Source: Geosiphon pyriformis uo1
Taxonomy: Eukaryota > Fungi > Glomeromycota
Assembly: GCA_016748015.1 (NCBI GenBank)
Contig: JAAOMT010000128.1
Coordinates: 1,619,538-1,683,537 of the forward strand
DNA length: 64,000 bases
Direction: 5' to 3'
The notes below the pieces were generated by a model. It did not search any database and was not told where the DNA came from. It was given only the letters and a program-made list of their open reading frames with translations. The position numbers were made by a program, and so were the translations under genes. Shown one piece after another: positions 27,301-53,320 of the stretch. Position 1 is the stretch's first letter, and each line of letters opens with the position of its first letter.

Positions 27301-30300
27301 TTGTATATTATCCAAAAAAAATATGAAACATATATCTGTTACTATTGTAAAACATATTACTAGGAACAATTTGGATAACTAAAAAGACAAAACAAATAAA
27401 ACAATAAATTATGTCTCACTTGTAAAGAAACTCTACTTGATAAAAGAATATAGAATAACATTTCTAATTATAAAAGAATATGTAATACATTATATTAATA
27501 CACAATTTTCACTAATAATTAGAAAAGCAAAAAAACATTTTTCAATACTATATAGAATAGAGCTTTTTTATGTTTAGATGGTTATCTACATGATAAAAAT
27601 AAAATCTGGCAAATGGCAAGTGCTAAAATCAAAAATGTTTTACTTAATAAGATATTAGCAATCAAAAACAACCCACCAGAATCTATTAAAACCATTTTTA
27701 TTTCAAATTCAAACATCTTTGTTAACATTATAAATAATCCAAAACAATTCTATAAATATTATCAAAATCTAATATCTACTTAAAAAAAACAAGAGCAGTA
27801 TTTAAAACAATTAAATATTAGACTCTGTAAACATTGTTTAATTTCCAGTGATTTCAAATATTGTGACAATTGTGATTTTATTTACAATTTACTACTGCAC
27901 ATAATTTATTCAATCTCTAAAAAAAAAGAATTAATTAACAGTTATGCTTTAGAATTAGAATTGAAACTTAATTTCAATTAAACTTTAACAATAACAACAG
28001 TAATAATTCTTTCACAATAACAATAACAATAACAATAATTCAAATTTTAATAAAAACTTCAAATAATATATTATGCTTTTAGATCTTTTAATAGAACAAA
28101 AATTTAAATAATTTAATAATAATAACAAAAATATCATATCAGAATACATATATGATACTAATATAAAGTTTAATCTCAAATATTTTGAAAAAACTGCCAT
28201 CAAATTGAAATCTTATTTGTATATTAGCATAAATTTAAAATTAGCACTAAAAATTCTAGCAACAACAATAATACAATTAGCATCCAAATCTAGTTTAGTA
28301 AAAAAAAAGATTAATATTAAAGAAAAAATAATTAATACAGAATATATAAAAAATATTATTACAATACTACAAAATAAATCGAAAAAAGCATATATAATTA
28401 AACCAAATAAAAAAATAGCACAGGCAATATTTTTGCTTTTGGTAAAAATAACTTAATTAATATTAATAAAAATAAAATAAAAATTAGAAATAACAGCAAA
28501 AAAGATAAATAAATTTGGATTTATAAATAAAATAAAGATACCAGTTAATATAATAGAAAAAAAACAATTGGTTAGAAAGAAATTATCTTCATTTATTAAT
28601 CAATTTCTATTTTATTATATAACTAATATATATTAACTATTAAATAAAAAATAAAAAATCAACCTCAAATTTTTGAATAGACTATATTATTTGTAAATCA
28701 AGAAAAATTGCCATTATTAATCTCTATATACTAGCCAAAAACCATAAAAACATTAAAATTTTAATATATAATACAACTGAAAACCCAATAGAAATATCAA
28801 GTAAAACTATTATTAAATACTTAAAAACTAAAATTAAAGATTAATCACCAACAATCATTTCAAATTTTTCACAACTGTGTAGATATATGGACATTATATT
28901 ACAAACTATTTACAAACAAAAAGAATATTATTTGCTGCAACCAAATAATTAGAGCAAATAAATTTAAGAAACTTAGATCTATTCCAATATATACAAATTA
29001 AGCTATTACTTAACAATTTTACTGATATTTTTGTAAATAAAAATAAATTTGACAGAACTAACATTATTTAACACTAGGTTAAAACTAGAATACAATTTTA
29101 ATTAAACAAAAAGCATATTAAATACTACTTACTAACTATAAAATTATTTATTAAAAAATCAATCACATGTTAAACAATGGATTAATTCAACTATTAATAA
29201 GTTTATGATTATTATCAGTAGTATTTATCTAAAAAAAAATGGAAAGATTTGCTTTTATGTAATTATAAAAAACTTAACAGTATTACTTATAAAGACAGCT
29301 ATTTAACTCCACAAATTCAAAAATAGTTTTAACATTAAATTTAAATAGTGATTATTGACAAGTAGTCATAAATTCAGCCAACAAGAAAAAAACAGCATTC
29401 ACTATCAAAAAAAAACTTTGAATTTGATGTTATGCCTTTTGAATTAACCAATGCTCCAGTTACCTTTTGATAATTAATGAAAATTATTTATATTAAATTA
29501 TTATAGAAATCAATAATAATCTACTTAAATAACAAAAATGTGTTCTCCAAAATATTTAACAATTATTTTTACTATCTTTAGCAAGTATTTAAAAGATTAA
29601 AAAAAGCAAAATTAAAGTTAAATACTATTAAGTATTTTTTTGAAAAAACTAAACTCAAGTTTTTAGAACATGTCATAAGTAAAAACAGCATTAAAATAGA
29701 TTTAAATAAAATTAAGATAGTTAAAAACTTTTTAATATTAACCAACTTAATATAACTAAAAACATTCTTGGAATTTATTGGATATTATTACTATTTTATT
29801 TAAAACTTCTCCAAATTGGCTTAATTATTATATTAGTTTTAAGCAAAAAATATCAAGTATGAATAAATTAAAAAACAACAAAAAGCTTTTAATACATTAA
29901 GAAGAAAGTTCATTTAAGCTCTAATTTTAATCTACTTAAATCACAGCAAGTTATTTATTATTACTACTAATATATTAAGTCAAGTATTGAAAGCTGTATT
30001 ATCACAAAAAAAATTAAATAAATAAAAACATTCAATAGCATATGCCAGTCAAAATTTGAGTATAGCTAAAAAAAACTATAAAACTCTAACACTAGAATAT
30101 TTAGCTATTTTTTGGACTGTTATTAAATAAAAAGAATACTTAAGCCAAAAACTTAATATATATATTAACCACAAAAAATTGACATTAATTTAAAAGCAAA
30201 AATTTGGAAATAATTGTTATGCAAGATAGAAAATAAAACTATTATCATTTAATTATAAAGTACATTATAAAAATAAAAATACTAATAACTTATCATAAAT

Positions 30301-32413
30301 AAAACAAATTTAAAAACATTTCAATTCAAAAATATAACAAAAAATAAACACACAAAAATATTAACAACTCCAATATTATATTAATACTCAATAGTTTAAA
30401 AATAAATTATCTCAAAAAAAACAAAACAACATAAAACAGCAATCAAAATATTTTATTACTTATTAAAATATATTATATTAGAAATACAAAAAAATCTAAA
30501 CCAACTACTTAAAGTAATTACAAAACCAAAAAAAGAAAAAATACTGTTTAATATGTATTTAAATCTAACTGCAAAACATTTTTATAAAGAAGCAATCATA
30601 AAAAAAACCAGAAAAAGATACTATTGGCCATCAATATATCCAGATATTATCTAATATGTTCAAAATTATAATGTTTGTTAAAAAAAAAAACAAGATTCAG
30701 TAAACCACTAAAACCAATTAAAATAAGACAACTATTTGATTAGATTGAAATTGACTTAATAAAACCATTAATAATAATTAGCAAAAACAATTAATACATA
30801 ATAATAATTATAGATTATTATACAAAATAGCCAGAAGCTAAAGCCATTTAAAAAGCAAATGCAAAATTTATAACCAAATTCATATACCAGAATTTGATTT
30901 GTTAACATAAATGTTCAAAAAAATTGTTATTAAACCAAAAAACTCATTTTATAATTAAAACATTAACAGAATTAAGTTAAAAATTTGGAATTAAAAAACT
31001 ATTATTATCTTTATATTATTTATAAACAAATAGCTTAGTTAAAAAGTTTAACAGAATATTATACAAAACAATAACCAAGATTAATTAAAAAAACCAGAAT
31101 AAATAATATTTGTTTATACTATTAATATTATTTACTTATTAAACAATAAAGCAAGATATTATATAAGCAATATTATTTTAACTAGTCTATAATAGAATAG
31201 TAATATTATTAATTAAGACAGATATTAATACATACCTAACAGAACCAATAACAAAAGCCAACTTTCAAAAAACATTGCTAAAAAAAACATATAACTTAAT
31301 AAAAACTCTAAAAAACAAAAGATAAAAAGCAGTTAATAATATACAAAAATCACAAAAAAAATAAAAAAACAATATGACAACCAATTATCAAAAAAACCAG
31401 TCAAATTCAAGATTAAAAACAAAATATTTTTACATTGTACCAAAAAAAAAAAACAATAAAGTAAAAAATTTAACTCTAAATGAGACAATTTATTTTATAT
31501 TAAAAAAATTCTAGAAAATAAAATTTATAAATTAAGATAGAACAACAAAATTTTAACTAAAACAATACAAAGTAATTGGCTAAAACCATATTATAATATA
31601 GTATTATTATTCACTAATAATATTCTACAATTGAGAATACAAGAAATACTAGTCAAACCAAATAAAATTTCATAAAATTTGAAACCAATTATAATTATTA
31701 AAGAAAACATAAAAAGTAGATAAAATAAAAGTATATAAAAACACAGTATGTGTGACAAAAACAACAATAAAAAATAAAAATCTCAGACTACATTTATACA
31801 ATAGTACAACAATTGTTTTAAGCCATAAATTAACAACAATTAGACATAAAAATTATTATCAATTACTAAACAATTTGTTATAAAAACACAAAAAAAGAAA
31901 GAAAAACAAAAATTACTCTATATTAACAATTATAAAACCAAATAAAGTATTGATTAGATAAGATTATAAAAAAAGTAAAGAATACTTTTAGAAAAATACC
32001 AATTATTATTCTAACAGAAGAACTAACTAAAAAAAAAACTGAAAACTATGAACAAAATAACTTTCAATAGAATACTATTACTATTAATTGAGACAAAAGC
32101 TGAATATTTAGGAATTGTATATTAACAAATCCAAAAAATGTTTAATCAAAAAATAATACAATAGATTAAAGACTTTATTAAAAAAAAACAAGTTCAATAC
32201 TATATATTAAAACAATTTATTAGCCATCTATTATATTTCAAGATTATTTAAAAATACTATTATATTTAAAAATAGAAACAATAATTATTAACCAATAAGA
32301 AAAAATAACTAACTTTTAATTTAAAAACATAAGAACCAAAATTGACAAATAGTATTAGAAAAAGAAGTAATAAACTTAATTTAAAATAAAAATTTTAATA
32401 GAACTTAATGATA
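24369..32413 (+). pseudogene. Element C coding remnants: Gag-PR-Cys-rich-dUTPase-RT-RNH (to 30313), integrase (~30343-31720), accessory ORF (~31780-32413)
   Basis: Colinear with element B throughout (e.g. dUTPase ORF 28205-28456 IQLASKSSL...KKIAQAIF); very many stops from transitions. Confidence 0.8.
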
Positions 32414-32426
32414 AAAAAAGAGATAA

Positions 32427-33192
32427 TATTACTTATAAAAAAAAGTACATAAAAAAAATAGAAAAAACAGATTATAAAATAAACCAATAAAAAAATAATA
32501 CTCAATAAATAAACATATTTTTAGAAAATTATAATACATTTTTAAAAATAAGCACATTTTTAAAAAATAATATAAAAAAAAATAAAAATATGTAAAGTCC
32601 TATATAACATGAATTATGTATATATAGTAAAAATATTAAAAGCAGAAAAGACAAAACAGAAGCTAAAAACAAATAATTATCTTATACTTTTCTTTTTAAA
32701 AGATAGTTTTTCTATAACTTGAAATGGAATTATATTTATATAAATAAAATATTCAATTATTATTTAATTTATATTATTATTGCTTGATTAAAAATTTTTA
32801 TTACTTTTTTATTATTAACAATTTATGTTGATAGCATCTGATATTTAATTATATTGGACTAATAATTCTTGATTATAACTATTAATAGAATACTAATTTT
32901 TTACTTTTTTTTTATTTTTTTTATTTTGTTGTTATTAATTAATTTAGGAATTAAGCATTGAATAATTGATATCAAGAATAGCCTAATAAAAAACTCATAG
33001 AACAAGAGTAGAAAACTTAAAAATAGTTTATTAGAAAAACATAACTGTCAGATTAAACTAGCTATTATATTAAAAACATAAATTGGGAAAAAATCATCAA
33101 TTAAATTTCGGTTTATTATACAAAAAACTTAACAAAACTCTTTAAATTACAAAAACTTTTAGAAATTATTATTAGCAACAGTTATTAAGCAC
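32427..33192 (+). repeat. 3' LTR of element C, left part (the last 53 bp lie at 54185-54237)
   Basis: Follows PPT AAAAAAAGAGA-TAA; matches the 5' LTR up to TTAAGCAC and resumes after element B. Confidence 0.88.
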
Positions 33193-34052
33193 TGTTACTC
33201 ATAAAAATGAAAACAGATATAGAAAAATAGTAGGCCAATAAGAAAGTAGTAGTTAGCACGTGAGCACATTGTTCAGCAATATGAAGCAATATCAGAAATC
33301 ATAACACATCACTCAGCAATATGGAGCAATGTCAAGAAAATATGGCACATTGCTCAGCAATGTGAGCATTGTTTGAGAAATTATAGCACATTGCTCGAGA
33401 ATGTGAGTGATCTTGTAGAACCCAAATTATGTATATATAGTGGTAGCATTAGAAGTAAAAAAGACAGACCTTCTAGTTTAGATTTAATCTAAGCAATCTT
33501 TCCATTCACAAATATTAATAAATAATTATTCATTATCTTAATCCACTTTCCACTATTAACACTTCATGTTGATAGCAATTGATACTTAACTATACTGGAA
33601 CAATAGCTCTTGATCATGGCTATTAACGGAATACTAACTTGCAATTGCATTGGCTCATTTCTTCATTTTTTATTTTTTTTATTTTTTTTCTTTGATTTTA
33701 TTGTTGTGTACTAAATTAATTAAGAGAATTAAAGTGCTAAGTTACTAATGTCACAAATAATCTGGTAAAAAATCCAGAAATAAGAATAGAATTATATATA
33801 TTAACAGATAGCTTACCAAAAGGGCACAACTGCCAGATTAAACCAGCCATTACACTGAAGACAGAAATTGGGAAAACAACTTGAAGAAAACAACTTAAAC
33901 CAACCATAGTGAATCTCTGTCCATTATACAAAAAACTTGGCAACAAACCTTCAGATTCATTAAACTTTTAGATATTAACACCAGAATACCAAACCAGCAC
34001 TAAGTTATGGATTTGTTATTTGACTTAAGATCCCAAATAATCATCTGTAACA
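33193..34052 (+). repeat. 5' LTR of element B
   Basis: Direct repeat of 53321-54180; U3 tandem GCACATTGCTCAGCAAT units; TATATATA at ~33432. Confidence 0.95.
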
Positions 34053-34064
34053 TTTGGTGCTCCC
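34053..34064 (+). promoter_or_regulatory. Primer-binding site of element B
   Basis: TT-TGGTGCTCCC immediately after the LTR; TGG complements the tRNA CCA end. Confidence 0.8.
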
Positions 34065-34398
34065 TGTAAGATATAATCCTACAGAAAACCAGCACCAACA
34101 ACAATCATTTAAAAGTGGTAGAATCAGAAATTATAGGGACAAACCATTTAGGATTCGCCAAATTTTTGTTTCAACAGTACAGCCAACAATTAGAATTAAA
34201 CAATAATTATTTCCCAGTAAAATCAGCCTTTAACTTCTATGTCAATAATAAAATCACAGACTGCTTAGGAGGAACAGTTGACATTGAATCTGCAAGAGAA
34301 AACTTCTATACAGAATTATTTCAACATACCAGTTTACCAAAAAACTACAGTTTTGCACCAATCATCAAAGAAATCAATCAAACCATTAAAAGATACAC

Positions 34399-35390
34399 TG
34401 TTACCAGACGAAATTAGAGATATCATTGAGCATGAAACTATCTTATAATTCTTATCATTAATTAGCATATATTATCATTTCAAATTATTACTTATTACAT
34501 TAGCAAAAATGTCCGAAATTATTATTTAATTAATAACCCAAATTGTACACAACACAAATATAACTTAATTGTGATGATCAATCATGCAATACCCCGAACT
34601 ATGTAACATTCAAAAGTTCACCAAAATTTATAGAAATTTGCCAAAATAATTGATAGTTTACTGAAATATCTAATAGTTCACAGAAATAACTTGTAGTTCG
34701 CTGAAATGTATCTTTAGTTCAGCGAAATTGTAGAAAATAGCAAAGTTCAAGTTCATAGAATAGTGTTATGACAAGTTGTATAAAAAAAAGAGCTTCTTTC
34801 TTCGAGAAAATGTATCTTACTTTAGATTTATCACTTAGAACCATTTCTACACACACAAAAAGAAATAAATATCAGATAATTCAAAAAACCAAATTCTTTA
34901 AATTATTGCACTTGGAAAATCCTCAAAAACACAACTAACAGTTTGAAATTGATTAGCTACCAATTTCAGTAAACTGTTAAAACACTTCCAGGCCTGGATC
35001 CAAAATGACTTTAACAAATCAATTTCTCATTTCTTCTTTTTCTTTCTTTTTCTTTTATTTTCTTTTCTTTTATCATCATAATTATTAGGGTAGTCTACAG
35101 ACAAAATTTCTGTAGAAAAGTTGACTTTCACAGCAAAGTAACTATACATTTTAGTGAGCTTCCAGACAAGCAATTCCTGGAAAAGAGTTGACGTTTACTA
35201 CAATGTAACTACATAAAGTAACTGGCATGAAATTGGCCATTCTACTCATAAACCCAGCAGCTCAAATTATAAGAGATAATTTGAGGATAAATTCAGTTAC
35301 TGGAGGTTCAACTACATTTAGAAAATGTGAATTCACAGCAAACAAGCATCGACAATATTTAAGAAAAGAGACCAAAAACCTCTGGTAACA
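34399..35390 (+). repeat. 5' LTR of element A
   Basis: TGTTACCAGA...TCTGGTAACA (10-bp inverted termini); direct repeat of 44261-45252. Confidence 0.95.
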
Positions 35391-35403
35391 TTTGGTGCTC
35401 TCC
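35391..35403 (+). promoter_or_regulatory. Primer-binding site of element A
   Basis: TT-TGGTGCTCTCC directly after the 5' LTR. Confidence 0.8.
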
Positions 35404-35435
35404 CATGGAAATAACACAGCAACAACAAATTCAAA

Positions 35436-38400
35436 GTGGCGACTGCCTCAGACATCACAACCTTAGAGTACTATCAATTGATTTACACACACTGCAAACA
35501 ACAATTTGAAATACGTGACAGAATCATAGCTTTCAAGAAAACACTTTTTCAATACATCGAAAATTGAATCAATGACTACCTCTTTGGAAACTATAACATT
35601 ACAACAGTTAAAAGAGATCTTTTTGAGAACATACTACACTATTCCAACACTGAATCAGAAAACATTAGTGCTGAAGCTTGCACTACTTATTTTGAAGAAC
35701 TTGATTATAATATCATTTGATTCTGTGAAGAAAAATATCCTGCAAACACACAATTTGTCTTTGAACTCAAATCTGAACCTAAAACCAGTAGCAACAAAAG
35801 ACAAAGAGATAACCGACCTGTTCACATAACACCCAATACTCCCAAAATATTATTTAAACATTTACAAACACCTGAACAAAGAACCAGTTCAAAACTTCCA
35901 CTTACTATCACACCTTTTCCAGCTTCACTTGCACAAGCACAAACACCTAATTCACCTTTAAATCGATTTGCAAGACCAGAAGATTTTACATTACTCAGAA
36001 GTCCCACCAGACAACAAGAACCCCTTCAAACTAGTTCCAATCTCCTTGATTTTCTAGCTGAAAATCAAAGTGAACACTCTAAGACAGCAGCAAATGAAGA
36101 AAACAACTCTGAAATAACTAAAGAAGAATCAATAGACAGTGAAAATGAAGAAGACGAAATGACAACATACATCGCAAAAATCCCTGAATTCAATGGAGAA
36201 GATATTGAGACCAGTCCTCAAGAATGGCTCGACCAAGTTACTAAAGCTAGAGATGCAAATAGATGGAATACTGCCAGAATGTTAAGAACAATTCCCTATT
36301 TTCTCAAAGAAACAGCAGGAGAATGGTTTGAAAACCTTGCCACTCCATTTAATGATTGGAACACTTTCAAAACAGCCTTCCTTGAACAGTTCACTGACAA
36401 TAACACCTCCATCATTCTTCGCAATTGTTTTCGAAATATCAAACAAGAACCCTCCGAATCTATTATGACTTATATTGGGAAATTCAACAAACTTCTCAGA
36501 CAAATTCGCCAACTCGAGACAAACAATTATTATTCCAATGCTCAAATCTTGGATCAATTTATCGCTGGTCTAAAAGATAAACTAATTAAAAAGGTTCGCC
36601 CACATGTGCCAGAAGATTTAAACTCTGCCATACAGCATGTGAAAAGATATGAAATGGCCATAAAAGAGGCCAACCGCACAAAACTTGTAAATTTGGCAAT
36701 TGGAGAAACCAGCTCAGCAGCTGAGAAAAAAATTGACCAACTCACAAAGAAGGTTAAAAACTATTTTACCAATCAACAACAACAGCAACCCCAAAGATAT
36801 CAACCACTCCAAAGACAAAATCAAAATAACTTTGCACTACTTTCCAATAACCAGCCTCAGAATTGCCATTACTGTGGAATTTCTGACCACTGAAAAAGAG
36901 ATTGCAGAAAGCTACAATGAGACCAACAAAATAGGAGTAATCAACATTACCCTCCACTACAGCAATCTTATTATTAACCGCCACCACCAGCTTACTATCT
37001 ATCAAGACCCCAATATCAAAATAACTATCATCAGCCTGTCCCACAGCCAATCCCACAGCAATACCAATAACTGCTCACACAACATTATCAAGTACCTGCT
37101 CGAAGACTGCTTACACAAAATCAATTCACACCACAAAACTGATACCAAGCAAACAACAATAGAATCAGTTCAAACAACCAATTGGTTCCCCAAAATACCA
37201 CTCAACCAAGATCCAACCACTACCATACTCAACCCAGTTATTTAACAATGCCAGAAGAACAGGATTTTTACCATACTGCACTTTTGGAAGGTAGAGCTGC
37301 AGCACAACAACAAAACCCTTCCTATATTTCCACCACAATTCCATCAGCCAGAATCGCTGAAAACGCTAATCTTTCAGATATATTCCTTTTTAAGTTCGAA
37401 GCAAATGAGTCACCATTTCTGCTTAGCAATGCAGCCACCAATGAACAAAAAGCAATCATGGCCATGTACACTGAAGCCGAAATCGAAGGAAAGACAATTC
37501 GCTTGATCCTAAACAGTGGATCCACCGGAAGCATTATCACCTACCAGTTAATGCAACAGTTAAAAAGAAATGTTGACCGACCAGCTCAAACAGTAATCGT
37601 CACTGCTGATGGCATGAAAAAGACCCCAGTAAGAGAAATTGACAATTTTCTGTTCACTCTTGATGGAATCACCATTCCAGTCAAAGTTCTTGTAATGGAC
37701 GCACCCCAATACCAAGCTCTTGTCGGAAATGATTGGCTTCAAAAAGCCAATGCTAATCTGAATTGGGAAACACAAGAGTTAACAATCTCCTACCAAGGAC
37801 AACACACCTGGGTACCTGCCATTTGTGGTACATTCAACAAATGCTCTGAAAAAGCCCCGGCTTTTGAATTTGAACTGGAAAAGGAAAAACCTTTCATTGA
37901 AACATTCATGGCTCTTGGATCAACGTCCAACTGGGCCGATGAAACAGAACAAGAACATTTTACTCTGCACTCTAAACCTGAAACCTCTGAATGGAATATA
38001 TCTTACTCAAAACCCGAACCAAGGAAACAACGCCCCTATATTCCTCTTAAATGTAAGAACTGCCACAAGAAACTATCGTCAATGGGAGCCTGCATTTCAC
38101 CTAAAAAAAAATATAAGAATCATACTTGTTATTACTGCAAGGCTTGCCACAGAAAATGATAGGGCCATCTAATAAAAAGGAGTGGAAAATAGGACAACAC
38201 CTCTTGTTTGACTTGTGGAGATATGCTACTGGAAGAATGCAATTGGATTGATGTAGCCATGAGAGGAGGAGTCTGCGATCAGACCTGCCAATATGCTTTA
38301 TCAATTTCAGAAAAAGTAAAAAGAAGAACACCCTTTAATGCAGCATACAACAGTGCTCTCAACAAACTTTATCACTATTCCCATGATGCCGAAATGATTT

Positions 38401-41045
38401 TTGACCTAGCAATAGCATTAATTAATAGAGCTACCAAAGAAGATGTTTGCCAAATAAAGAAAGCAGAATACATTGAATACACTATGGAATTAGCTGAATT
38501 TGATTACAAAGACAAAGTAGAAGTCTACCACCAAATTGCAAGTCACATTTACCCAACCCAAGAAGCTCAAATTCAACGATTAGAGCAAATGAACATTAGG
38601 CTATGTGAAAAATGTATTATGCTTTGTGATGAACAGTGGTGTCCTGAATGCTACGCTCTTAGCATTCCCTTGCCCAATGAAAATGATAAATATGAAATTG
38701 AATTCGGAGAACTTGAAGCAACAGAAGAAATTGAGACAACACCTATCTATCTCATTGAAAATCAATCTGCTTTACAACTCAAATATTTCAACAACAATGG
38801 ACAAGGAATAAAACCAGAAAAAGCCCACGAAATTGATGCTGGATATGATCTAAGATATCTAGGAAAAGATACTCTTACTCTCAAACCCAAATCTCTCACA
38901 AAAATCAACTTCAAAATTGCTCTCGAAATCTCACTAAGAGCAATGGTTCAAATTGCTTCTCGATCATCCTTGGCAAACAAAGGAATCAATGTTAGAGGAG
39001 GAATCATCGATGTGGAATACACAGGAGACATCACAGTCATGTTACAAAATGAAACTGATAAACCTTTCAAAATTGGATATGCTGAAAAAATTGCTCAAGC
39101 TATCTATCTACTCTTAATCAACATTTCGGGTTTACAATTAGTTAATCAAAGAGAACAGTTGGGAAAAAGTAAAAGAGGAACACAAGGTTTTGGTTCAACT
39201 GGACATTTCACAGTTCCAGTAAACATAGCTCTCAATGAACAAAAAGAATCTCACCAGATTTTACAACTTCCACAACCAATTACCATTTCACCCTTTAGAG
39301 AACACTCTGAAATTTACATTTGTGAAAAGCCAACAATCACACAACAAATTTTTGAATCAAATGAACAAATCTGATTAAAACATAAAATCTCGATCCCAAA
39401 CATTTATATTCCAGAAGGAACAAAGAAAGTCCGAGTTACTTTTTACAATCCCAACAATTATCCCATAGTTTTATTAAATAACTTAGAAATAGGAATCATT
39501 CATAGTAACATCTTTCAACAAGAATTACCCCAAACAGTTCCCGATTTTTCTGAAATTATTGGATATTCACTACCAAAAATCAATCCAAACCCCAGCTCCG
39601 AAAACTACCATGTTGTCATGGAAAAACTATCTCAAATCAACATGGGACAACATGAACCACAACAACAGACCCAGCTCAAAGAACTAATTGCAGAATTTGC
39701 TGATATCTTCACTGAAAACAACAATGACTTAGGAAGAACCGATTTGGTCCAACACCAAATTTATACAGGAGATGCCAAACCAAGAAGACAACAAGCATAT
39801 CGAGTTGCTCCAGAAAGCCACCAATTTATCCGAGAAGAAGTACAACAGATGCTTAACAATAGGCTTATTTAACCATCAATGAGTCCATAGACCTTACCAG
39901 TGGTCCTAGTTAAAAAAAAGAATGGAAAGATATGATTTTGTGTTGATTATTGACAATTCAACAGTGTCACCATTGGGGATGCTTACCTTCTTCCATGAAT
40001 TGATGACATGTTAGATGCCCTTGGAAAATCTAAATACTTTTCAACATTAGACCTAGAAAGCGAATACTGGCAAGTTGCCATGGATCCCAAGGACCGCCCC
40101 AAAACAGCATTTACAACACAAGGAGGAAACTATGAATTCAATGTAATGCCCTTTGGATTATGCAATGCACCAGCAACATTCCAAATACTCATGAATGTTG
40201 TATATGCTGAACTCCTTTGGAAATCAGTAGTTGTCTATCTTGATGACACTGATGTTTATTCCCCATCTTTCGGACTTCATTTAATTCACCTGTGAGAAGT
40301 TTTTCAACGATTATGTAGAGCAGAATTAAAACTAAACATTAAAAAATGCCATTTTGGAAAAACAAGTTTGGCCTTTCTTGGTCACATAGTTAGTGAAGAA
40401 GGAGTCAAACCAGATCCAGGAAAAATCAGTGCTGTTAAGAATTTCAAAGTTCTATGAAATACTACAGAACTAAAAGGATTCATAGGATTAGCATCCTACT
40501 ATTGGAAGTTTATCAAAGGATTCTTAGAAATTGCAAAACCCCTCAACCAGCTCACCACCAAAAACATGGAATACAAATGGACTACCAAACACCAAAAAGC
40601 TTTTGAAATTCTCAGGGAAAAACTGACAACAGCCCCAATCCTCGCCTACCCGGATTTCAGCAACCAATTTCGACTAGCTACAGATGCTTTATATACTGTC
40701 TTTGGTGCCATCTTATCACAACTAGATGATAATAGAAATGAGCAAGTAATTGCCTATGCTAGCAAAACATTAAAACCAGCTAAGAAAAACTACCCTGCCA
40801 CAGAACTAGAAACAGCAGCTGTAATTTGGGCTCTACACCACTTCAACCTTTATCTCAGGCCTAAAGAATTTGATATTATCACTGATAATATTGGACTCAA
40901 ATGGCTTCAGAACAAAAATACTCAGCTGAATGCAAAACAAACCCGATGGACAGGATTTCTAGCAAACTATTGATACATAGTACATCACAAACCAGGAAAA
41001 CTCCACATCAATGTTGACTGTCTCTCCAGAATAAGACAAGATTAG
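35436..41045 (+). pseudogene. Element A single-frame polyprotein: N-extension, Gag, zinc knuckle, aspartic protease, Cys-rich domain, dUTPase, RT, RNase H
   Basis: ORF fragments at 36159, 37182, 38208, 39618, 40008 and 40566 share one frame and are separated only by in-frame stops explicable as transitions. Motifs: CHYCGISDH*KRDC, LILNSGS (DSG decayed), AGYDL/RSSLA/GIIDVEYTG/IAQ/RGTQGFGSTG, MPFGLCNAPATFQ, YLDD, TDA...ELE...TDN...NVDCLSR. Confidence 0.93.
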
Positions 41046-41075
41046 AAAACAAAAACCAACACTCAACTTAACCAA

Positions 41076-42055
41076 TGTTACTGGAGGTTTTTGGTCTCTT
41101 TTCTTAAATGTTGGTAATGTTGATTTGCTGTGAATTCATGTTTTCAGGAAGTAGTTGAACCTCCAATAACTGAATTTATCTTCAAATTATCTCCTATAAT
41201 TTGAACTGCTGGGCTTATAAGTAGAATGGCCAATTCCTTGCCAGTTATTTTATGTAGTTACGTTGTAATAAATGTCAACTCTTTTCCAGGAATTGCTCAT
41301 CTGGAAGCTCACTAAAATGTATAGTTACTTTGCTGTGAAAGTCAACTCTTCTACAGAAATCTCGTCTGTAGGCTACCCTAATGATTGTAATAAGAAAAGA
41401 AAAAGAAAATAAAAGAAATGTAAAAGAAATAAAATTTTGTCAAGAGAAACATTTTCTATTCAGGCCTGGAGTCACTAACAGTTTACTGAAATTGGTAGCT
41501 AATTAATTTCGAAATGTTAGTTGGGTTTTGGGAATTTTCCAAGTACAATAATTAAAGAATTTGGTTTTTTGAATTATTTGATATTTATTTCTTTTTGTGT
41601 GTATAGAAATGGTTTTAAGAGATAAATCTAAAGTAAGATACATTTTCTCAAAGAGAAAAGCTCTTCTTTTATACAACTTGTCGTAACACTATTCTATAAA
41701 CTTGAACTTTACTATTTTCTACAATTTCACTGAACTAAAGATACATTTCGGTGAACTACAAGTTATTTCTGCAAACTATTAGATATTTCGGTGAACTATC
41801 AATTATTTCAGCGAATTTCTATAAATTTCGGCAAACTTTTGAATATTACATAGTTCAGAGTATTGCATGATTGATCATTGCAATTAGGTTACATTTGTGT
41901 TGTGTACAATTTGGGTTATTAATTAAATGATAATTTTGGACATTCTTTGCTAATGTAATAAGTGATAATTTGAAATGATAATATATGCTAATTAATGATA
42001 GGAATTATGAGATAATTTCATGCTAAAATGATATCTCTAATTTTGTCTGGTAACA
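41076..42055 (-). mobile_element. Inverted solo LTR of an A-related subfamily
   Basis: 980 bp, reverse complement of LTR-A with a divergent central tract (~41410-41480); perfect TSD CCAA (41072-41075 / 42056-42059). Confidence 0.95.
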
Positions 42056-42078
42056 CCAACCAAAAGAGCCAACAAACA

Positions 42079-43464
42079 ATGAATTCAGAAAACTATAGCA
42101 ATCTTAAACAATATTTGGAAACATTAACAATCCCAACAGATTGGTCTTCAGATAAAAAACATTAACTACAACAACAAGCCAAACAATATTTTCTACACAA
42201 CAACATTATTTATCATCGAAATTTCAAAAACCCAGACAAACCACTCAGACTAATACAAGAACAGAAAAAAGAGACCATATTATACAACATGCACTCAAAT
42301 TCTTCATCAGCACACTTTGGAAAAGATAGCACCACTTAAAGAACACTAGAATACTACTTTTGGTCTCGAATAAGAAAAGACATTCACGAATATGTCAAAT
42401 CTTGTGATAGTTGTCAAAGAAGAGGAGAAACACACTCTACTGAATCATTAAATCCAATTAAAGTTGGACAACCCTTTGACCGAGTTGGTATCGATTTAGT
42501 TGGATCATTATCTATTACCACTCAAGGAAACCATTATATTGCAGTAGCTGTAGACTATCTTATTAAATGGCCCAAAGCCAGAGCCATTCAATGAACAGAT
42601 GCGAAATCAGTAGTAAATTTCATCTATAAAGACATCATTTGTAGACACGGATGTTCAATTGAACTTTTATCCAACCAGGGAACACACTTTGTGAACAACC
42701 TAATACAAGAAATTTGTAAACAATTCAATGTCAAAAAACCTCTGTCTTCGCTCTACCATCCACAAACAAATGAACTTGTGGAATGTTTTAACAGAACATT
42801 GTGTGAGTCATTAGCCAAAGTCTCAACCGATTTTGAGCAAGAATGGGATATCTTTATTCCATCAGTGTTACTAGCATATAGAACACTAAAACAAGATACC
42901 ACAAAACACACACCATTTGATTTAACTTACGAAAAGACAGCAACACTACCAATTAAGTTCACAGTGGAAACATACTCAGCACAACCAATCAATAAAGACA
43001 ATTTCCAGAAAACACTTCAACGAAGAGCCTACACTCTGCTTAGCATGTTGGAAGAAAAATGACGAATAGCAGCCACCTATATTGAACACTCCCAAGCTCG
43101 ACAAAAAGAACGGCATAATAACAAATTGCCTCCAGTCACTAATAAATTTAAAATTGGAAACAAAGTTCTCTTACACAGAACTAAAGCTGAAAAACAATGG
43201 AGTGGGAAATTTGAAAATAAATAGGATAAACCATTCTTTATCCATGAAGTCCTAGGCAATGAATCATATAAACTAAGACTTGATGACAAAATCCTAGCAA
43301 AAGTTGCACATGGAAATCGTTTGAAACACTATTATTCCAGAAACAATCCTGAACCATTAATTCCACAAATTGGTATACATTCCCCTTTAGTCAATCCCGA
43401 AGATATTCCCCAAAACTTAGAACCAATAGTTGTCATTAAACAACCTTTCAACCTGAACATTTAA
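42079..43464 (+). pseudogene. Element A integrase, stand-alone ORF
   Basis: Own ATG at 42079 (MNSENY). HHCC finger (MHS...AHFG...CDSCQ), core VGIDLVG / LLSNQGTHF / NELVECFNRTL, GPF-type module (W...PFFIHEVLGNESYKL...HGNRLKHY). No chromodomain. Confidence 0.9.
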
Positions 43465-43572
43465 TTTAATTTTACTAGTTATTCCTTTATAATTTAGAAA
43501 TAATTAAAACAAAAAATAATATAAAAACCCATACACCAAAAATAATTTTCTTTTATTTTCAAATCTCTTATA

Positions 43573-44249
43573 ATAAATATTCCACAAAACATTCAACAAT
43601 TATCCCAAAAACTAATATTAGCTTTAAAAACAATACCCGAATTATCCATTACTGTTACTGGAAACCATATTAATTATACCCAAACAGAAGTAGTTACAAA
43701 TTTAGCCCCAAATTCACGAAAATATCACCTGTATAAAAAAAACACAAGAAGTTATACTGGAATTCACCTGCCAGAACTTTTAAAGCTTGCTTTAAGAGAA
43801 AATTTAATGCTCACTCCGATTAGTATTCCACCAAATGCTACAATTTAACAAAGACTTCAACTGTGTCTCAATGAGAAAAACACTGAATATCCTCCAATCT
43901 ATAGATATTTTCACATTGGAAAAACACTCTACAAATGGAAACTGGAACTTACAACAACAAATCTCACAAAAAAAGCTATTCAGAAACAACTCCACAACGA
44001 ATTCAAGACAACAGCTGGATTAACAAACAGTTGCTATAGGCTCAGAGCTGCTCTTAGACTTTATGACATATTCCACACCTGTGAAAACGTACTACAAAAC
44101 CCAATTTTTCAACCTTTGAAGATTCAATACATTGGAAAGCTCACAGAACTGAAATTTCAACAATTTTCAGACCAAATTTCTTCAATAATTTTGGATTATT
44201 ATCTGGAAATAACAAACAGTACTTGGACTTCAATGGAGCTCAGTCTTGA
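43573..44249 (+). pseudogene. Element A 3' accessory ORF (ORF-X), unknown function
   Basis: Long frame starting ATA-NIPQNIQQL (probable decayed ATG) with one internal TAA. Aligns by eye with B 52672-53307. A 1-nt shift near the end gives DFNGAQS-TGA at the PPT. Confidence 0.7.
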
Positions 44250-44260
44250 GGAGAAAGTTA

Positions 44261-45252
44261 TGTTACCAGATGAAATTAGAGATATCATTAAGCATGAAAC
44301 TATTTTATAATTCCTATTATTAATTAGCATATATTATCGTTTTAAATTATCACTTATTACATTAGCAAAAATGTCCAAAATTATCATTTAATTAATAACC
44401 CAAATTATACACAACACAAATGTAACCTAATTGTGATGATCAATCATGCAATACCCTGAACTATGTAACATTCAAAAGTTTGCCGAAATTTATAGAAATT
44501 CGCTGAAATAATTGATAATTCACCAAAATATCTAATAGTTCATAGAAATAACTTGTAGTTTGCCGAAATGTATTTTTAGTTCAGCAAAATTGTAGAAAAT
44601 AGCAAAGTTTAAGTTTATAGAATAGTGTTATAACAAGTTGTATAAAAAGAAGAGCTTCTCTCTTCGAGAAAATGTATCTTACTTTAGATTTATCACTTAG
44701 AACCATTCCTACGCACACAAAAAGAAATAAATATCAGATAATTCGAAAAACCAAATTCTTTAAATTATTGCACTTGGAAAATCCTCAAAAACACAATTAA
44801 CAGTTTGAAATTGATTAGCTACCAATTTCAGTAGACTGTTAAAACACTTCCAGGCCTAGATCCAAAACGACTTTAACAAATCAATTCCTTATTTTTTCTT
44901 TTTCTTTCTTTTTCTTTTATTTTCTTTTCTTTTATCATCATAATCATTAGGGTAGCCTACAGATGAGATTTCTGTAGAAGAGTTGACTTTCACAGCAAAG
45001 TAACTATACATTTTAGTGAGCTTCCAGACAAGCAATTCCTGGGAAAGAGTTGACGTTTACTACAACGTAACTACATAAAGTAACTGGCACAGAATTGGCC
45101 ATTCCACTCATAAGCCCAGCAGCTCAAATTATAGGAGATAATTTGAGGATAAATTCAGTTACTGGAGGTTCAACCACATCCAGAAAATGTGAATTCACAG
45201 CAAACAAGCATCAACAACATTTAAGAAAAGAGACTAAAAACCTCCGGTAACA
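44261..45252 (+). repeat. 3' LTR of element A
   Basis: Follows the PPT; direct repeat of 34399-35390. Confidence 0.95.
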
Positions 45253-48200
45253 ACGCACAACAACAATTCTCTATTACCTACACAGACAAAAACAAAGGAA
45301 GGTTGTAAACACCAGCAGTAATACCAAAACAAATACAACCACCCACTTGAAAGAAAACCAGAGTTGAATCACCAGCAAACCCATTATATTACTATACATT
45401 CGGAAGCACCATTAACATCACATCAACAAACGTGTCCACATTAACTATGATATCAACATTTGGATGATTCCCATTCCAGAGTAAACAAAGAAAAGAAGAT
45501 CTTCTAGAACTATACAGTATGTATTTTGAAGGATTTAAGTTACAATTACCAATGCCATCAGGACTTTGATCTCCACCACTCCAACCCAATTTTGGAACCA
45601 TAAGTCCTTGAAAAATAATGGAATTGGAAAAAGAACAAGAAGAAGAGAAAGAAAAATTTGAAGATCAAGAATTTACTTACCAAAACTCGATCCCAAAAAA
45701 CCTGGAAATTGAAACTCCGAACCTACAAACTCAGCAAAATCTAAACTTGAAAAATCCAGAAATCGGAACTCTGAATATTCAAACACTGCCAAATCAAGAC
45801 AATTCAAACCCTGAGTTAATTAATTAGCAAAACTTATCTTCAATAATTGTCATTGATCAGCCACCAGCTGAACTGATCCAACTGCAACAAATACCACCAC
45901 TTCAACAACTCTAACAGCCACTTCAACAGCCACAATAACAACTTCAACAACCAAACTTGGATCTAATGGCCTATGTTCTAATAGCAAAACTTGAGAAATT
46001 CACCGGCAAAGAAAATAATGCCCAAATATGGCTTAACAATATTGAAAAAGCTATCGCAACCAACAGATGAAATGACCAGAGAGCACTCCAAGCCATCTTT
46101 TATTTCTTACAAGATACTGTTGACTTGTGATATCAAAGCTTAGTCACCAAATCCTAAACATTCCAGGAATTTAAAATCGCATTCTTGGGATACTTCAGTA
46201 ATAATAATAGCATTAACTGATTGGCAAACACTTTTACCACCATTAAGCAAGAAGAAAATAAAGCAGTCACTACTTATTTAGGATGCTTCCACAGAAATCT
46301 GTGCCAAATCCAGGCCATACAGACTGATTATTTCACAGCACCACAAATTTTGAATTAATTTATTAGAGGCCTGCACAGCAGCATTCTTCAACACATATGC
46401 CTAATGCATCCAGTAGACTTTCAAGCTGCAGTTACAAATGCCAGAGATTTTGAAGCAGCCAAACTCGAAGCCAACCATGCCCAAGCCATAAATCTAGTGA
46501 TGAACGAATCATCTGACTTAGATTCCAAACTAAAGCAATTAAGTAACTCACTCAATCAGAAATTAAAAAAGTACTTAGCTAACAACAATCAAGTCATTTA
46601 TCAACCTTCCCAACAATGCAACAATCAGGGAAATGGAAATTGATTCCAAAATCAGTCACATTTAACATCTTCCATAACTAATCAACAGTGACAACAAGAA
46701 ACACATGCTTGCCACTATTGTGGTAAACAAGGCCACTTGCAAATTGATTGCCGCCAACATTTAAATAACCAATGATTAGGAAATCAATATTGAAATTCTG
46801 ATCACCGAATTCAAATTCCGAATCATCAATCAAATCCAGCTCTATATCAACCAAATTATCTACTGATAACACAGTCATTGTATCAAATCCCAATGATGCA
46901 GCAATTATACTCACCTTCAGTCTATTAGTCTCCAGCATCAATTTATCAACTGTAGTCTTAACTCATTTATTAGCCACAGTTTCAGGTAATTTATCAGCCC
47001 CAACAAAATCAAACACTGTCCTAGTACTTATCTTAAAATGGAACCCAAAAGCCAAGACTGATACAACAAAGCTGGAGATTATTAATAGTAGTCTATCAAC
47101 TGATCCCCAGTTCCTCAAACCAGCCATCAGGATCTTGACAATGGAATTTGGGCACTGAGTACACCCAAAATCCGAATTCTCAACCATATTTAAAGTCTAC
47201 TGGTTATTCCAGAAGATGTCTAACCCAATAATCTGGAAACCAATCAACAACCAACACTTACTAGCAATATTCTACCAGCTACCATTACCAAAAACGAATC
47301 ACTGGATGCTATTTTTCTATTCAAACTTGAGGAACTGTTAATCACACCATTGTTTAGTGGAGCTGCCCTTAAGGAAAAACCTATTATGGCCATGTATACT
47401 GATGCCAAAGTTGATGGCCACCCCATTAAACTAATCCTAGACAGTGAATCAGCTGGCAACATTATTACAAGACAACTCATGGACCAATTAGGTTACCAAG
47501 TTGATCAAGCTGCCAGTGCCAAAATCATAACAGCTGATGGAACAACCAAAACTCCAATTAGCAAGATTGACAATCTATCTATTAAAATCAATGGCATCAT
47601 AGTACCCATCAAAGTCCTAGTAATAGAAGCAACACAGTACCAAGCACAAGTTGGAAATGACTAGTTAGTCAAAACCAACACCATGCTAAACTGGAACACA
47701 CAGGAGCTTCAACTTAGCCAGAATAGTCAACATACCTGCATACCAGCCATGTGTGATCATTTCAAGACTACCAAAATGCCAACACCACTTATCAAGTTCA
47801 AGAAAGAAGAAAAGAAACTTACTTAGGAAACATACCAAGTGTTATGGGCTGAAGAAAACCACAACGAGTTACCACTAATATCCTCTTGGGATGACAACAG
47901 AAAAAGAAAACAGAAAGAAGAACTTACCTGGAATCCCAACCAAGTCTGGGAAATTGACAACAACCAGAAAAAGATAATAAATTGGGAGTGAGAAAAAAAT
48001 ACAAAAGGAAAGAGAAAGAGAAAAGAAGAAGAACCAATATTACCCACCACCACCACCACCACTACTTATAATCAATATACCTATACTGCACCACAATGAT
48101 TCACCTATTATTGGCCAAAACTTATATGTGTTGATTGCAGTAAGAAATTGTCATCAATAGATGCATGCTGTAGCAACAATGAGGAATACTCAACAGTAAC

Positions 48201-51200
48201 CAAATTTTATTGCCATGCATGTGTTATAGAATGCTTTGGACAACCAAAATGGAAAGAAAAATGAGACAACAAACCTTGTTTAGCTTGTGGAGAAACATTA
48301 CTTGACAAAGGAATGTGAAATGACATTCCTGGTTGAGGAGGAACATGTGACACTTCATGCCAGTACACGATTCTTATTAGTAACTGGATTAGGAAAGGAA
48401 CACCAATAGAAGCCACATGGAAAAAAACCATACAGTAATTGGACAATTGTTCACACAATGATGATGAGATATAGAGAATGGCAATCACCAAAATCAAAAG
48501 AGCATCACCAAAAGAAATAAAAACAATTAAAAATAACCCACTTGAATCCATAGAACTTGACTGAAACCCAGAACCAGTTATAAATCTACTAGATCCGGAA
48601 CAATTCCATAAACACTATCAGGAATTAGCACTTACTAGAGAAGAACAAGAGCAATGGTTGGAAGAAATCAACACTCGACTATGTGATCATTGTTTAATTC
48701 CCTATAACTTTCAATATTGTAATAAGTGTGACCTCATTTACAATCCACCAATCCACATGATCTACACAATTCCAAAGAAAGAAGAACCAATCAGCAGCTG
48801 CACATCAGAATCAGAATCAAATTTCAATCTTGATTCAAACTCCGACAATGACAATGATGAAAACAACAGTTTCAGTTCTACTCTAAATAGCAATAAAAAT
48901 TATGATGATTCAAACTCTGATTCAAATCCCGAAATATTTATTACACTTTCTGACCTCACCAAGGAACAGGAACTTAAATGGTTCAGCAATAGTGGTGAAG
49001 ATATCATGCCAGAACATATACATAATACGGATGCAAGGTTTGATCTAAGATATCCAGAAAAAAATCCCATTAAATTGGAACCACATTCGTGCACCTATAT
49101 TGATCTTAAAATAGCACTGGAAATTCTAGTGACTACTATGGTTCAATTAGCATCTAGAAGTAGTTTAGCAAAAAAAGGAATCAATATCAGAAAAAGAATA
49201 ATTAATGCAGGGTATATAGGAAATATTATTGCTATGCTACAAAATGATTCAGAAAAGACCTATAACATAGAACCACAGGCAATATTCTTATCTTTGGTGA
49301 AAATAGCTCAGTTAGTGTTAGTAAGAAGCAGAAAAGAATTAAGAATAATAGCAAGAGAGATACAGGGATTCAAATTAATGGGTAAAATAGATGTATCAGT
49401 TAATATAACAGAGAAAGAGATTATTGACAAAGGAGAAATTATCTCAACCCATCAATCAATTTCTATTCCACCATATGGCCAGTATATATTAGCCATAAAA
49501 AGAGAAGTAAAGAATCAAGCTCAGTTGTTTGAAGCAAAAGCTACCATTTGTGAATCAGAAGAGATTGAACTCATTAATCTTTACATATCAGCCAAAAGCC
49601 CCAAAAACATCAAAATTCCCATCTACAACATAATGGGAAATATCATTGAGATACCAAAGGAAATCATCATTGGATATTTAACCACTGAAGTTGAGGATCA
49701 ACCACCAGACTATATTCCAGATTTTCTACAGCTTTGTGGATATATGGACATCACATCACAAACCATCTATGGGTGAAGTGAATGTTATCTGCTCTAACCA
49801 AAACAATTGGAACAGATAAACATGAGAAATCTAGACCCACTTCAACAGATGCAACTAAGAATATTACTTAGCAATTTTAATGACATCTTTGCTAGCAAAA
49901 ATGAATTTGGCTGCACCAATATTATCCAACATCAGATTAAGACTGAAGATGCAATGCCAATTAAGCAAAGAGCGTACAGAGTACCACCAGCTAGTCATGA
50001 GATTATTCATTAAGAAATCAATTAGATACTTAACAATGGGCTAATTCAGCCATCAATAAGTCCATGGTTATCACCAGTAGTACTAGTCTGAAAAAAAAAG
50101 AGAAAATTCACTTTTGTGTGGATTACCAGAAACTAAATAGAGTTACCAAAAAAGACAGCTATCCAACTCCAAAGATCCAAGAACTATTTGACGCTTTTGG
50201 AGGAAATAAATGGTTCTCAATACTAAATTTAGATAGTAGTTACTGACAAGTAGCCATGGATTCAGCCAACAAAGAGAAAACAGCATTTACCACAAGAAAG
50301 AGAAATTTTGAGTTTGAAGTCATGCTATTTGGCTTAATGAATGCCCCAGCAACATTTCAATGGCTCATGGAAATTGTTTATACTAGATTACTGTGGAAAT
50401 CAGTAGTTGTTTATTTAGATAACACAAATGTGTTCTCAAAAACATTCGATGATTATCTGCACCATTTCCAACAAGTATTTGAAAGACTCAGACGAGCAGG
50501 ATTGAAACTAAATGCCAACAAATGCTTCTTTGGAAAAACAGAACTAAAATTCTTAGGACATGTTGTGAGTAAAGATGACATCAAAACAGATCCAGACAAG
50601 ATTGAAGCTGTCAAGAACTTTCCAGTACCAAACAATCTCACAGAGCTAAGAGCATTCTTGGGATTTGCAGGGTACTATTGCCACTTTATCAAAGACTTTT
50701 CTAAACTGGTCCAGCCACTCCATCATTTACAAACTAAGAATGTGAAGTATGAATAGACAGAAGCTCAACAAAAAGCATTTGACACACTAAGAAAAAAGCT
50801 TATTCAAGCTTTAGTGTTAATGTATCCAGATCACAACAAACTATTCATCATCACCACTAATGCATCAGACCAAACATTGAGAGCAGTACTATCACAAAAA
50901 AGACCAGATGAAAGAGAACATCCAGTAGCTTATGCCAGTAGAAGCTTAAGTCCAGCTGAAAAAAACTATGGAACATCAGCATTAGAACACTTAGCAATCT
51001 ATTAGGCAGTCATAAAATGGAAAAAATGCTTGAGCCAAAAGTTTAAAATATACATGAATCACAAAGGATTGACTTCAATCCAGAAGCAAGAATTTGGAGA
51101 TGACCACCATGCCAGATGGAAAATAAAACTTTCACCATTTAATTATACAGTACATTATAAAAAAGGAAAAAACAATAGAAATACCAACAGTTTGTTACAA

Positions 51201-51245
51201 ATGAGACAAATCTAAAAACACTTCAAACCCAAAAATATAAAAAAA

Positions 51246-52617
51246 ATAAATATACAAAAATACCAACAACTTCAACATTATATAAATATCCAACTGTTTA
51301 AGGAGAAATTATCTCAAAAGAAACAAAACAACATAAAACAACAATCAAAATATTTTATCAATTATCAAAATATACTTTACCAGAAAAACAGAAGAACTCC
51401 AGACCAGCCAACAAGAGTAATTACAGAACTGGAAAAAAAGACAATATTGTTCAACATGCACTCAGATCTAACAACAGGACATTTTCATAAAGAAGCAATC
51501 ATAGAAAGAACTAGAAAAAAATACTATTGGTCATTAATGTATTCAGAAATCATCTAATATGTTCAAAATTGTGATGCTTGTCAGAAAAGAAGAGGAACAA
51601 AACTCAATGAATCATTGAGACCAATCAAAGTGAGACAACTATTTGATCACATTGGAATTGACTTAGTCAGACCATTAACAATTACCAGCAAAGACAACAG
51701 ATATATTGCAGTAGTCATGGACTATCTTACTAAATGGCCAGAAGCAAAAGCCATTCAAAGAGCAGATGCAAAATCTATTGCTAAATTCGTTCATCAAGAT
51801 TTGATCTGTTGACACAGATGTCCAAAAGAATTATTATCAAATCAAGGAACTCACTTTGTAAATAGAACATTAGCAGAATTAAGCCAAAGATTTGGAATAA
51901 AAAGACCACTATTATTACCATACCATTTACAAACAAATGGGTTAGTTGAAAGGTTCAACAAAACACTGTGTAAAGCAATAGCCAAAATTAGCCAAAAAAA
52001 CCAGGACAAATAAGATTTGGTTATACCATCAGTATTATTTGCTTATCAAACAATGAAGCAAGATACCATACAAGCAACACCATTTAAATTGGTATACAGT
52101 AGAACAGCAACATTACCAGTTGAGATAGAGGTCAATACATATTCAACTGAACCAATAACAAAAGATAATTTTCAAGAAACACTATTAAGAAGAACATATG
52201 ACTTAATAGAAACACTAGAAAACAGATAATGAAAAGCAGCTGATAACATCCAAAAGTTACAAAAAAAACAAAAAGAATGACACAATAACCAACTACCAGA
52301 TAAACCAGTTGAATTTAAGATTAGAGACAAAGTACTATTACATTATACTAAAGTGGAGTGGAAAATTTAACCTCAAATGGGACAGACCATTTCACATAGA
52401 AGAAATTCTAAGAAATGGAGCTTATAAATTAAGATGGGACAACAAAATCTTAGCCAAAGCAGCACATAGTAATTAACTGAAACCATATCACCAGATAGCA
52501 TCATCATTTACCAATAACATTTCACAACTGAGAGTACAAAGAATACTAGTTCAACCAGATAAGATTCCACGAGATCTGGAACCAATCATAGTTATTGAAC
52601 CAAACACATCAAATTAA
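51246..52617 (+). pseudogene. Element B integrase, stand-alone ORF
   Basis: Starts ATA-NIQKYQQL 30 nt after the pol stop. HHCC (MHS...GHF...CDACQ), IGIDLV, LTKWPEAKAI, NGLVERFNKTL; ends DLEPIIVIEPNTSN-TAA. Confidence 0.88.
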
Positions 52618-53307: not shown

Positions 53308-53320
53308 AAAGAGGAGATAA

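Follow-up and report, generated by a model that had tools for sequence, protein, structure and literature searches.

In long terminal repeat (LTR) retroelements, the integrase is normally fused to Pol, which fixes the amount of integrase relative to reverse transcriptase and carries integrase into the particle. The Metaviridae profile of the ICTV, the international committee for virus taxonomy, places integrase within pol and allows gag-pol, gag plus pol, or gag plus pol plus env genomes (PMC7879559). A dUTPase between protease and reverse transcriptase has been published for fungal Gypsy elements (PosPlaTy3-5, Phanerochaete elements and Tmt1), which have one Gag-Pol or separate Gag and Pol open reading frames (ORFs), some with an unnamed additional ORF, and for which the available part of the source mentions neither a separate integrase nor a Cys-rich domain (PMC2864245). 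According to the portions available, the rotifer elements Juno, Vesta and TelKA combine a dUTPase with a non-env ORF3 but keep their integrase in pol (PMC5408684), while plant Ogre/Tat elements have the polyprotein region in two ORFs and extra 3' ORFs but also keep integrase in pol, the split of Ogre lying between protease and reverse transcriptase (PMC6317226). Here we describe nested elements in 64,000 nucleotides of the Geosiphon pyriformis uo1 genome (contig JAAOMT010000128.1, positions 1,619,538 to 1,683,537 of the forward strand; this whole stretch is called the window, and positions are counted from its first letter), above all element A, in which Pol ends after RNase H and the integrase and a third ORF (ORF3) are almost certainly separate genes. 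The lineage is a variant of Ty3/Gypsy with a stand-alone integrase and a conserved non-envelope third gene, and not a new kind of system as the first-pass annotation of the window had proposed. A dUTPase at this place and unnamed extra ORFs have precedent in the available sources. For a stand-alone integrase in LTR elements no published description was found, as the annotation had supposed, in a search outside which lay Repbase, GyDB, most subscription papers and supplements, which could hold one.

Element A resembles Metaviridae and Ty3 in its LTRs, primer-binding site (PBS), polypurine tract, Gag (capsid and nucleocapsid), domain order from protease (PR) through reverse transcriptase (RT) and RNase H (RH) to integrase, 4-bp target-site duplication (TSD) and Ty3-type RT-RH, whose best PDB match, by a wide margin over the remaining PDB rows, was Ty3 RT (E = 1.7e-92). 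It differs from the Metaviridae plan in that integrase is a gene of its own and the third gene is not env. This departure from the canonical genome lowers its standing as a canonical member, not the case that it works like Ty3/Gypsy. Past integration is evident from the TSDs, and particle formation and tRNA priming would apply to element A by analogy. By family knowledge, replication would proceed by tRNA-primed reverse transcription in a Gag particle (ICTV description, PMC7879559), the protease would cleave the ORF1 product, the dUTPase would lower uracil in the cDNA, and a free integrase would need to reach the particle or the cDNA outside Gag-Pol. The features of element A are as follows.

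34399..45252, + strand: element A, Ty3/Gypsy LTR retrotransposon, innermost full element of the nest
34399..35390, + strand: 5' LTR, 992 bp, TG...CA ends
35393..35410, + strand: PBS-like sequence TGGTGCTC, 2 nt past the 5' LTR, its first 8 letters the same in element B
35415..41045, + strand: ORF1, single Gag-PR-Cys-dUTPase-RT-RH frame, 19 internal stops, no frameshift
36291..36575, + strand: Gag capsid domain (Retrotrans_gag, PF03732, E = 2e-13)
near 36870-36911, + strand: CCHC knuckle after the capsid domain
37473..37742, + strand: aspartic protease (PF13650, E = 2e-8)
37989..38798, + strand: Cys-rich domain between PR and dUTPase, 17 Cys and 6 CxxC, homologous in elements B and C and in protein P0195
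38814..39203, + strand: dUTPase domain between PR and RT (PF00692, E = 1e-20)
39909..40970, + strand: RT (YLDD) and Ty3-type RNase H (Pfam families RVT_1 and RT_RNaseH)
41043..41045, + strand: TAG ending ORF1 directly after RNase H
41076..42055, - strand: solo LTR of A's own family in the RH-integrase spacer, inverted, TSD CCAA, inserted later
42079..43464, + strand: ORF2, integrase as a stand-alone gene of 461 codons that opens with its own ATG and has 5 internal stops
43573..44310, + strand: ORF3, accessory protein predicted to be soluble and all-helical; start codon decayed, one internal stop, running across the purine tract into the 3' LTR
44235..44257, + strand: GGAGCTC motif, then polypurine tract (purine tract itself 44248-44257)
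44261..45252, + strand: 3' LTR, 992 bp

In contigs of A's family, the TAG at 41043 has no alternative letter reaching at least 3% of depth, while 7 nearby sites vary. In elements B, C and D of the window, a stop is found at the homologous place after RNase H, with integrase next. Furthermore, among 80 metagenome loci, 71 cover the RNase H end (the other 9 were left out, the RH end not being covered), and 27 of these 71 stop before integrase; in five further loci outside the group of split elements (L034, L052, L065, L074 and L076), RH is followed by a stop or shift, and these were counted, with no ATG search, as fused copies that are broken or cut off. The 80 loci were fetched by alignment of Pols that stop after RH and are a biased sample. 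Taken together, the invariant TAG, the same stop in B, C and D and the 27 loci indicate that the stop is not damage, and the claim of an integrase ORF of its own, starting at ATG 42079, is upheld. The combination of one continuous Pol-integrase frame and no conserved 3' ORF did not occur in A's family. The intact proteins closest to A's RT-RH are 49-55% identical to it; ten of them end 0-5 residues past RNase H, and several of those ten Pols are same-length members of multi-assembly clusters. The split and ORF3 could be artefacts of hypermutation and solo-LTR insertion in a canonical Gypsy element, since C-to-T change can account for most of the 19, 5 and 1 internal stops of ORF1, ORF2 and ORF3, and the RH-integrase junction is precisely where the insertion lies. 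However, the stop is invariant in the family, intact elements have the same layout, and ORF3 is open in many copies and belongs to a family of 506 clusters; such an artefact is hardly credible, and we rejected it on the stop invariance, the split metagenome loci and the located integrase ATGs.

The integrase of element A carries H2C2, rve and SH3 parts. Without the solo LTR, the spacer between TAG 41043 and the integrase ATG is 49 nt long and has no ATG. For 22 of the 27 split loci the integrase ATG could be located; a Met-requiring pattern found none in L008, L010, L011, L031 and L055, although one is visible in L031 and L010. Eight of the 22 ATGs overlap the Pol end (-14, -11, -8, -8, -4, -4, -4 and -1, with ATGA and TAATG overlaps), 10 lie at +28 to +93 nt and 4 at 163-833 nt. 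In an alignment of 20 rows, 19 place the first integrase Met in the same column, if P0430, with its additional residues ahead of the Met, is included among them. Integrase might still be made as a fusion to Pol, through stop readthrough, through a frameshift, or by splicing the spacer out as an intron, since Ogre splices its inter-ORF region in the available part of its description (PMC6317226), a single stop separates Pol from an in-frame integrase in B, C and D (after 30, 30, and 9 or 21 nt, respectively), and spacers of 48, 42 and 48 nt are found in three contigs of A's family that lack the solo LTR. However, 49-nt, +2 and +3 spacer variants also occur in A's family, and integrase lies in frames 0, 1 and 2 relative to Pol in 6, 8 and 8 of the 22 loci, with further stops in 5 of the 6 in-frame spacers, so that readthrough and frameshift fail as lineage-wide routes. 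Only 2 of 22 loci would allow a fusing intron with consensus ends, and the conserved first Met would have no role in a fusion. We therefore regard a fusion product as very unlikely.

A restart of translation would account for many of these junctions: ribosomes would stop at the end of Pol after RNase H and start again at the nearby integrase ATG. UAAUG and AUGA overlaps are, in the available part of the literature, a sign of restart known from SART1 and fungal viruses (PMC10275272), and SART1, CHV1 and HvV190S resemble the RH-integrase junctions of four relatives in this respect; no LTR-element integrase is among the cases of that source, and the window copies have a gap instead. For 10 of the 11 spacers no longer than 163 nt, no other ATG comes between the stop and that of integrase (2 seen vs 8.4 expected; P ~0.01), and in L013 the TAA of an extra ORF abuts the integrase ATG. 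The overlaps, the first-ATG count and the abutment in L013 favour stop and restart. A at -3 is found in 13 of 22 integrase starts vs 21 of 99 internal ATGs. Several points weigh against restart. In none of A-D does the integrase start overlap Pol: A has a gap of 49 nt, B and C have one of 30 nt, and that of D measures 9 or 21 nt. A gap also separates Pol and integrase in 14 of the 22 loci, among them L061 with 727 nt and 12 ATGs, which restart does not explain. Three of the eight overlap loci (L003, L007 and L048) are close kin, and a pentamer resembling the termination upstream ribosome-binding site was not enriched upstream (2/21 vs 14/147). Furthermore, the integrase starts were picked by the pattern that requires a Met, so the counts are not unbiased, and ATG-free spacers and a good start context fit a shorter second RNA equally well.

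This second RNA is the strongest competitor of restart. Integrase (and ORF3) would be read from dedicated shorter messages that arise through splicing from a 5' donor or through an internal promoter, as for env and accessory genes of complex retroelements. The range of spacers from -14 to 833 nt is consistent with it; the long spacers with many ATGs, such as that of L061, and the lack of overlap in A-D favour it, and the distance from integrase to ORF3 varies as well (-68 to 1600 nt). The ORF3s of rotifer LTR elements are described as coming from spliced messages in the part of the source available (PMC5408684). However, a separate RNA gives no need for the overlap with the Pol end, of 14 nt or less, that 8 of 22 starts show, and a YAG acceptor is absent in 9 of 22 loci in the region scanned before and at the start. 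A structured spacer element could also start integrase internally on the genomic RNA, since a conserved motif of ~40 nt stands between stop and ATG in five loci of one sub-branch (L005 at 4464, L010 at 2238, L014 at about 3298, L022 at 2799 and L028 at 5193), where it forms a predicted stem-loop with 4 of 11 pairs compensatory. However, the window does not contain the motif (allowing 3 mismatches gave 2 matches vs 1.8 expected), an exact copy is present in no more than 4 of 80 loci, the support from five related sequences is thin, and the motif could equally aid restart. Rfam gave no match at the motif in 10 loci, with one weak unrelated match elsewhere. The motif could serve restart, a second RNA or internal entry. 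Weighing these points, we give restart after the Pol stop nearly an even chance of being the main route to integrase; a second RNA is quite conceivable though short of probable, and internal entry is improbable. A large and diverse lineage without the Pol-integrase fusion must make and package integrase in another way, and the lineage is natural material for studying how fungi read polycistronic RNAs.

The trees were built from database proteins and metagenome loci without named reference clades; the short loci L064 and L075 were left out, and the rows of the 74-, 50- and 48-row trees (the last being the integrase tree) were hand-picked from the 126-row set or from loci. In the FastTree of RT-RH with 126 rows, all split elements group with A and B at a support of 0.98, and a quick IQ-TREE of 74 rows revealed the same grouping (SH-aLRT 100). 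A finished search of 50 rows, which reached a better likelihood than the quick run on the same rows, placed 23 split rows and P0195 together at 90/90, with one change in 91% of 200 bootstrap trees. In the integrase tree, 19 of 19 split rows are together at 99/99, plus two fused rows (P0194 and a long-branched plant protein). The coherent clade proposed earlier is thus borne out by the 90/90 and 99/99 groupings, the latter with its two fused rows inside. Against a single origin stand the fused P0194, which falls inside the split group in three trees (the 126-row, 74-row and integrase trees), the quick 50-row run, in which the split elements are not grouped, and the 50-row bootstrap, which is not settled. 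On these phylogenies, the split elements likely, though not provably, share one origin, and the sequences support the view that the split integrase and conserved 3' ORF are inherited in a coherent lineage reaching far beyond the window.

The first-pass annotation also regarded a polyprotein with two extra domains as common to the elements of the window and a mark of the lineage. It is indeed found in element A, and a dUTPase was detected in A, B, C, D and E. However, the Cys domain was detected as protein in A, B and C only, D and E showing only a collinear likeness of AT-rich DNA. Across the lineage the five-domain polyprotein does not hold as a mark, because a dUTPase is present in 1 of 80 loci and an A-type Cys domain in 0 of 80; the dUTPase also has the fungal precedent cited above. 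The environmental protein P0195 has both domains. In this way, the Cys-rich domain and dUTPase mark a sub-branch only, not the whole lineage. The Cys-rich domain of A has no Pfam match and would be expected to bind zinc. In another sub-branch, L038 has a dUTPase between PR and RT that is 50% identical to A's. Among other members, P0173, P0175, P0183, P0186 and P0223 have their own Cys-containing inserts at this place, for which no homology to A's was detected. The split elements L005, L010, L014, L028, L061, P0189, P0223 and P0235 have an extension of 160-590 residues between RNase H and the stop. An extra ORF was observed in L006 (coiled-coil-like, after integrase) and in L013 (between Pol and integrase). 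At the other end of ORF1, the first in-frame ATG ahead of the capsid domain of A is at 36159. About 250 codons of open frame (35415-36158), also present in other copies (P0158), lie 5' of this Met; since another copy does not keep the ATG at 35413, this ATG does not explain the putative ORF1 start. The catalytic Asp of the protease reads Asn in this copy of A but is kept in B and P0195.

The third gene had been placed in the env position. A conserved 3' ORF family is present there, but it is not env: none of 128 family members has a stretch above a mean hydropathy of 1.6 over 19 residues (Geosiphon copies reach about 1.0), and for lack of a membrane segment we rejected an Env or errantivirus-type third gene. 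The label 'virus-like' likewise fell away, since nothing points to a virus and ORF3 has no membrane segment. Among viral contigs scanned for relatives, six stretches came up and none was confirmed. The ORF3 of A has 204 protein relatives, and among the matches listed 120 of 120 are named G. pyriformis, mostly with 221-245 residues and in two subfamilies; it stays open in many copies. A profile search revealed a family of 506 clusters at 50% identity, and of 20 proteins looked up (18 of this family) one was named, from Glomus cerebriforme. A's ORF3 scored 12.9 bits against a profile of 128 non-Geosiphon members, which 0 of 200 shuffles reached, with mild circularity, since these members were first gathered by a profile including Geosiphon rows; the profile-profile comparison with the wider family gave a probability of 84% (E = 7.6e-6). 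The 3' ORF had been taken as common to A-D, but homology in the window is shown for A only, because that of B scored -7.7 bits against the family profile (hhalign against A's family, E = 0.01, weak) and those of C and D are too decayed for profile scoring. Direct BLASTP of A's and B's ORF3 gave E = 0.30. The 3' ORFs of nine loci in the split group are mutually homologous. All 8 of the 8 split loci that extend far enough have a family member behind integrase, compared with 0 of the 14 long fused loci; these counts are not unbiased, since the profile had been seeded with loci that it later scanned. The extra ORFs of rotifer and Ogre/Tat elements are heterogeneous and family-specific in the available descriptions, whereas ORF3 is one family across deeply diverged elements.

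The model of the ORF3 family member P0281 is all-helical, with eight helices in 148 residues (pLDDT 97), while the fold of the Geosiphon ORF3, built on 19 close copies, is poor (pLDDT 44). Foldseek of the P0281 model gave no match at E 0.001 in PDB or BFVD; the best VIA hit (Z 4.5, rmsd 3.3 over 70 residues) and the best atlas hit (feature score 0.85, TM up to 0.45) name no fold and show no fold novelty. Pfam and PHROGs searches of 126 members gave only weak matches of single members, and the best match of the PDB profile search had E = 0.025. Arg, Tyr, Gln and Thr positions are kept in the family. The ORF3 proteins form a family that has no name, folds with confidence and has been retained throughout the lineage. 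ORF3 is likely an intracellular regulator or adaptor, binding nucleic acid or protein, and not an envelope; a role in expressing or packaging downstream products may be suggested tentatively. A wider reading would make the lineage a family-level fungal branch (Glomeromycotina and kin) with a fixed three-gene plan, a free integrase made by stop and restart, and ORF3 as a regulator of new fold that drives the restart or loads integrase into the particle, a role comparable to that of the caulimovirus transactivator. We consider this whole combination unlikely. The ORF3s of these elements are annotated as hundreds of 'hypothetical' host genes in G. pyriformis, and the elements fill much of its genome, 41.2% of which is LTR sequence according to the available part of the genome report (PMC11952901).

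Among LTR lineages recently named from genome mining, the lokiretroviruses, Odin, Troyka and Kuafuorterviruses (PMC7947760, PMC9040795, PMC12440569, PMC11673190) differ from the elements described here in their animal hosts, as far as the available descriptions go, and lokiretroviruses have gag, pol and env. A split integrase in Loki and Odin was not borne out by the available parts of the published descriptions. Troyka has one Gag-Pol, a 3-bp TSD and CG ends in its available description, and membership in it was rejected on the 4-bp TSDs and TG...CA ends of the window elements. Chromovirus membership was rejected as well, because A's integrase has no chromodomain match at E up to 1; intact relatives end soon past the SH3-like part.

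Element A is a mutationally dead copy, inactivated by transition mutations and the solo-LTR insertion. Its LTRs are 93.4% identical and differ by 65 transitions and 0 transversions, which indicates RIP-like (repeat-induced point mutation) or methylation-driven mutation, so that LTR divergence overstates the age. The contexts of these transitions are CA (30), CG (15), CT (15) and CC (5). In element B, 83 of 85 LTR differences are transitions. The 4-bp TSD of A has one transition between its two copies. The GGAGCTC motif (44235-44241), possibly a cis signal for reverse transcription, is also found just ahead of the polypurine tract in relatives (L006 at 9190, L012 at 5476, L023 at 2124 and L061 at 9147) and as a one-letter variant in B; 2 of 6 pattern matches fell in fused loci.

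Element A and its solo LTR are the inner levels of a six-level nest at 19517-63530 (E > D > C > B > A > solo LTR), with 4-bp TSDs at four junctions and a GC content falling to 13-22% in the outer elements. The other elements are as follows.

33193..54180, + strand: element B, host of A, which sits in its 5' coding region; TSD GCAC
51213-51215, + strand: Pol stop of B, then a 30-nt spacer, integrase from 51246 and 3' ORF from 52672
23514..54235 (ends approximate), + strand: element C, older hypermutated relative of B, holding B in its 3' LTR
22233..62270, - strand: element D, host of C, hypermutated, with a stop after RH, then integrase
19517..63530 (ends approximate), + strand: element E, which D interrupts; LTR and PR remnant in the part on the left, dUTPase in that on the right

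The elements had been described as having distinct LTRs and the same layout. The split does lie at a homologous place in A-D, but the LTRs are not all distinct: B and C are one family, with a common LTR end and PBS and 70.6% identity over 5.2 kb, and the LTR region of E is 64% like that of C. The five elements thus amount to only about three witnesses that are independent of one another. Another solo LTR from A's family (92%) is found at 14568-15564, and at 63532-64000 lies a diverged LTR resembling A's (67%) that the end of the window truncates. Decayed reading frames at 11193-14702 have no Pfam match; we take them to resemble the endonuclease region of a long interspersed nuclear element. 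An intron-split host gene with BAR, PH and ArfGAP domains is located at 2779-6026.

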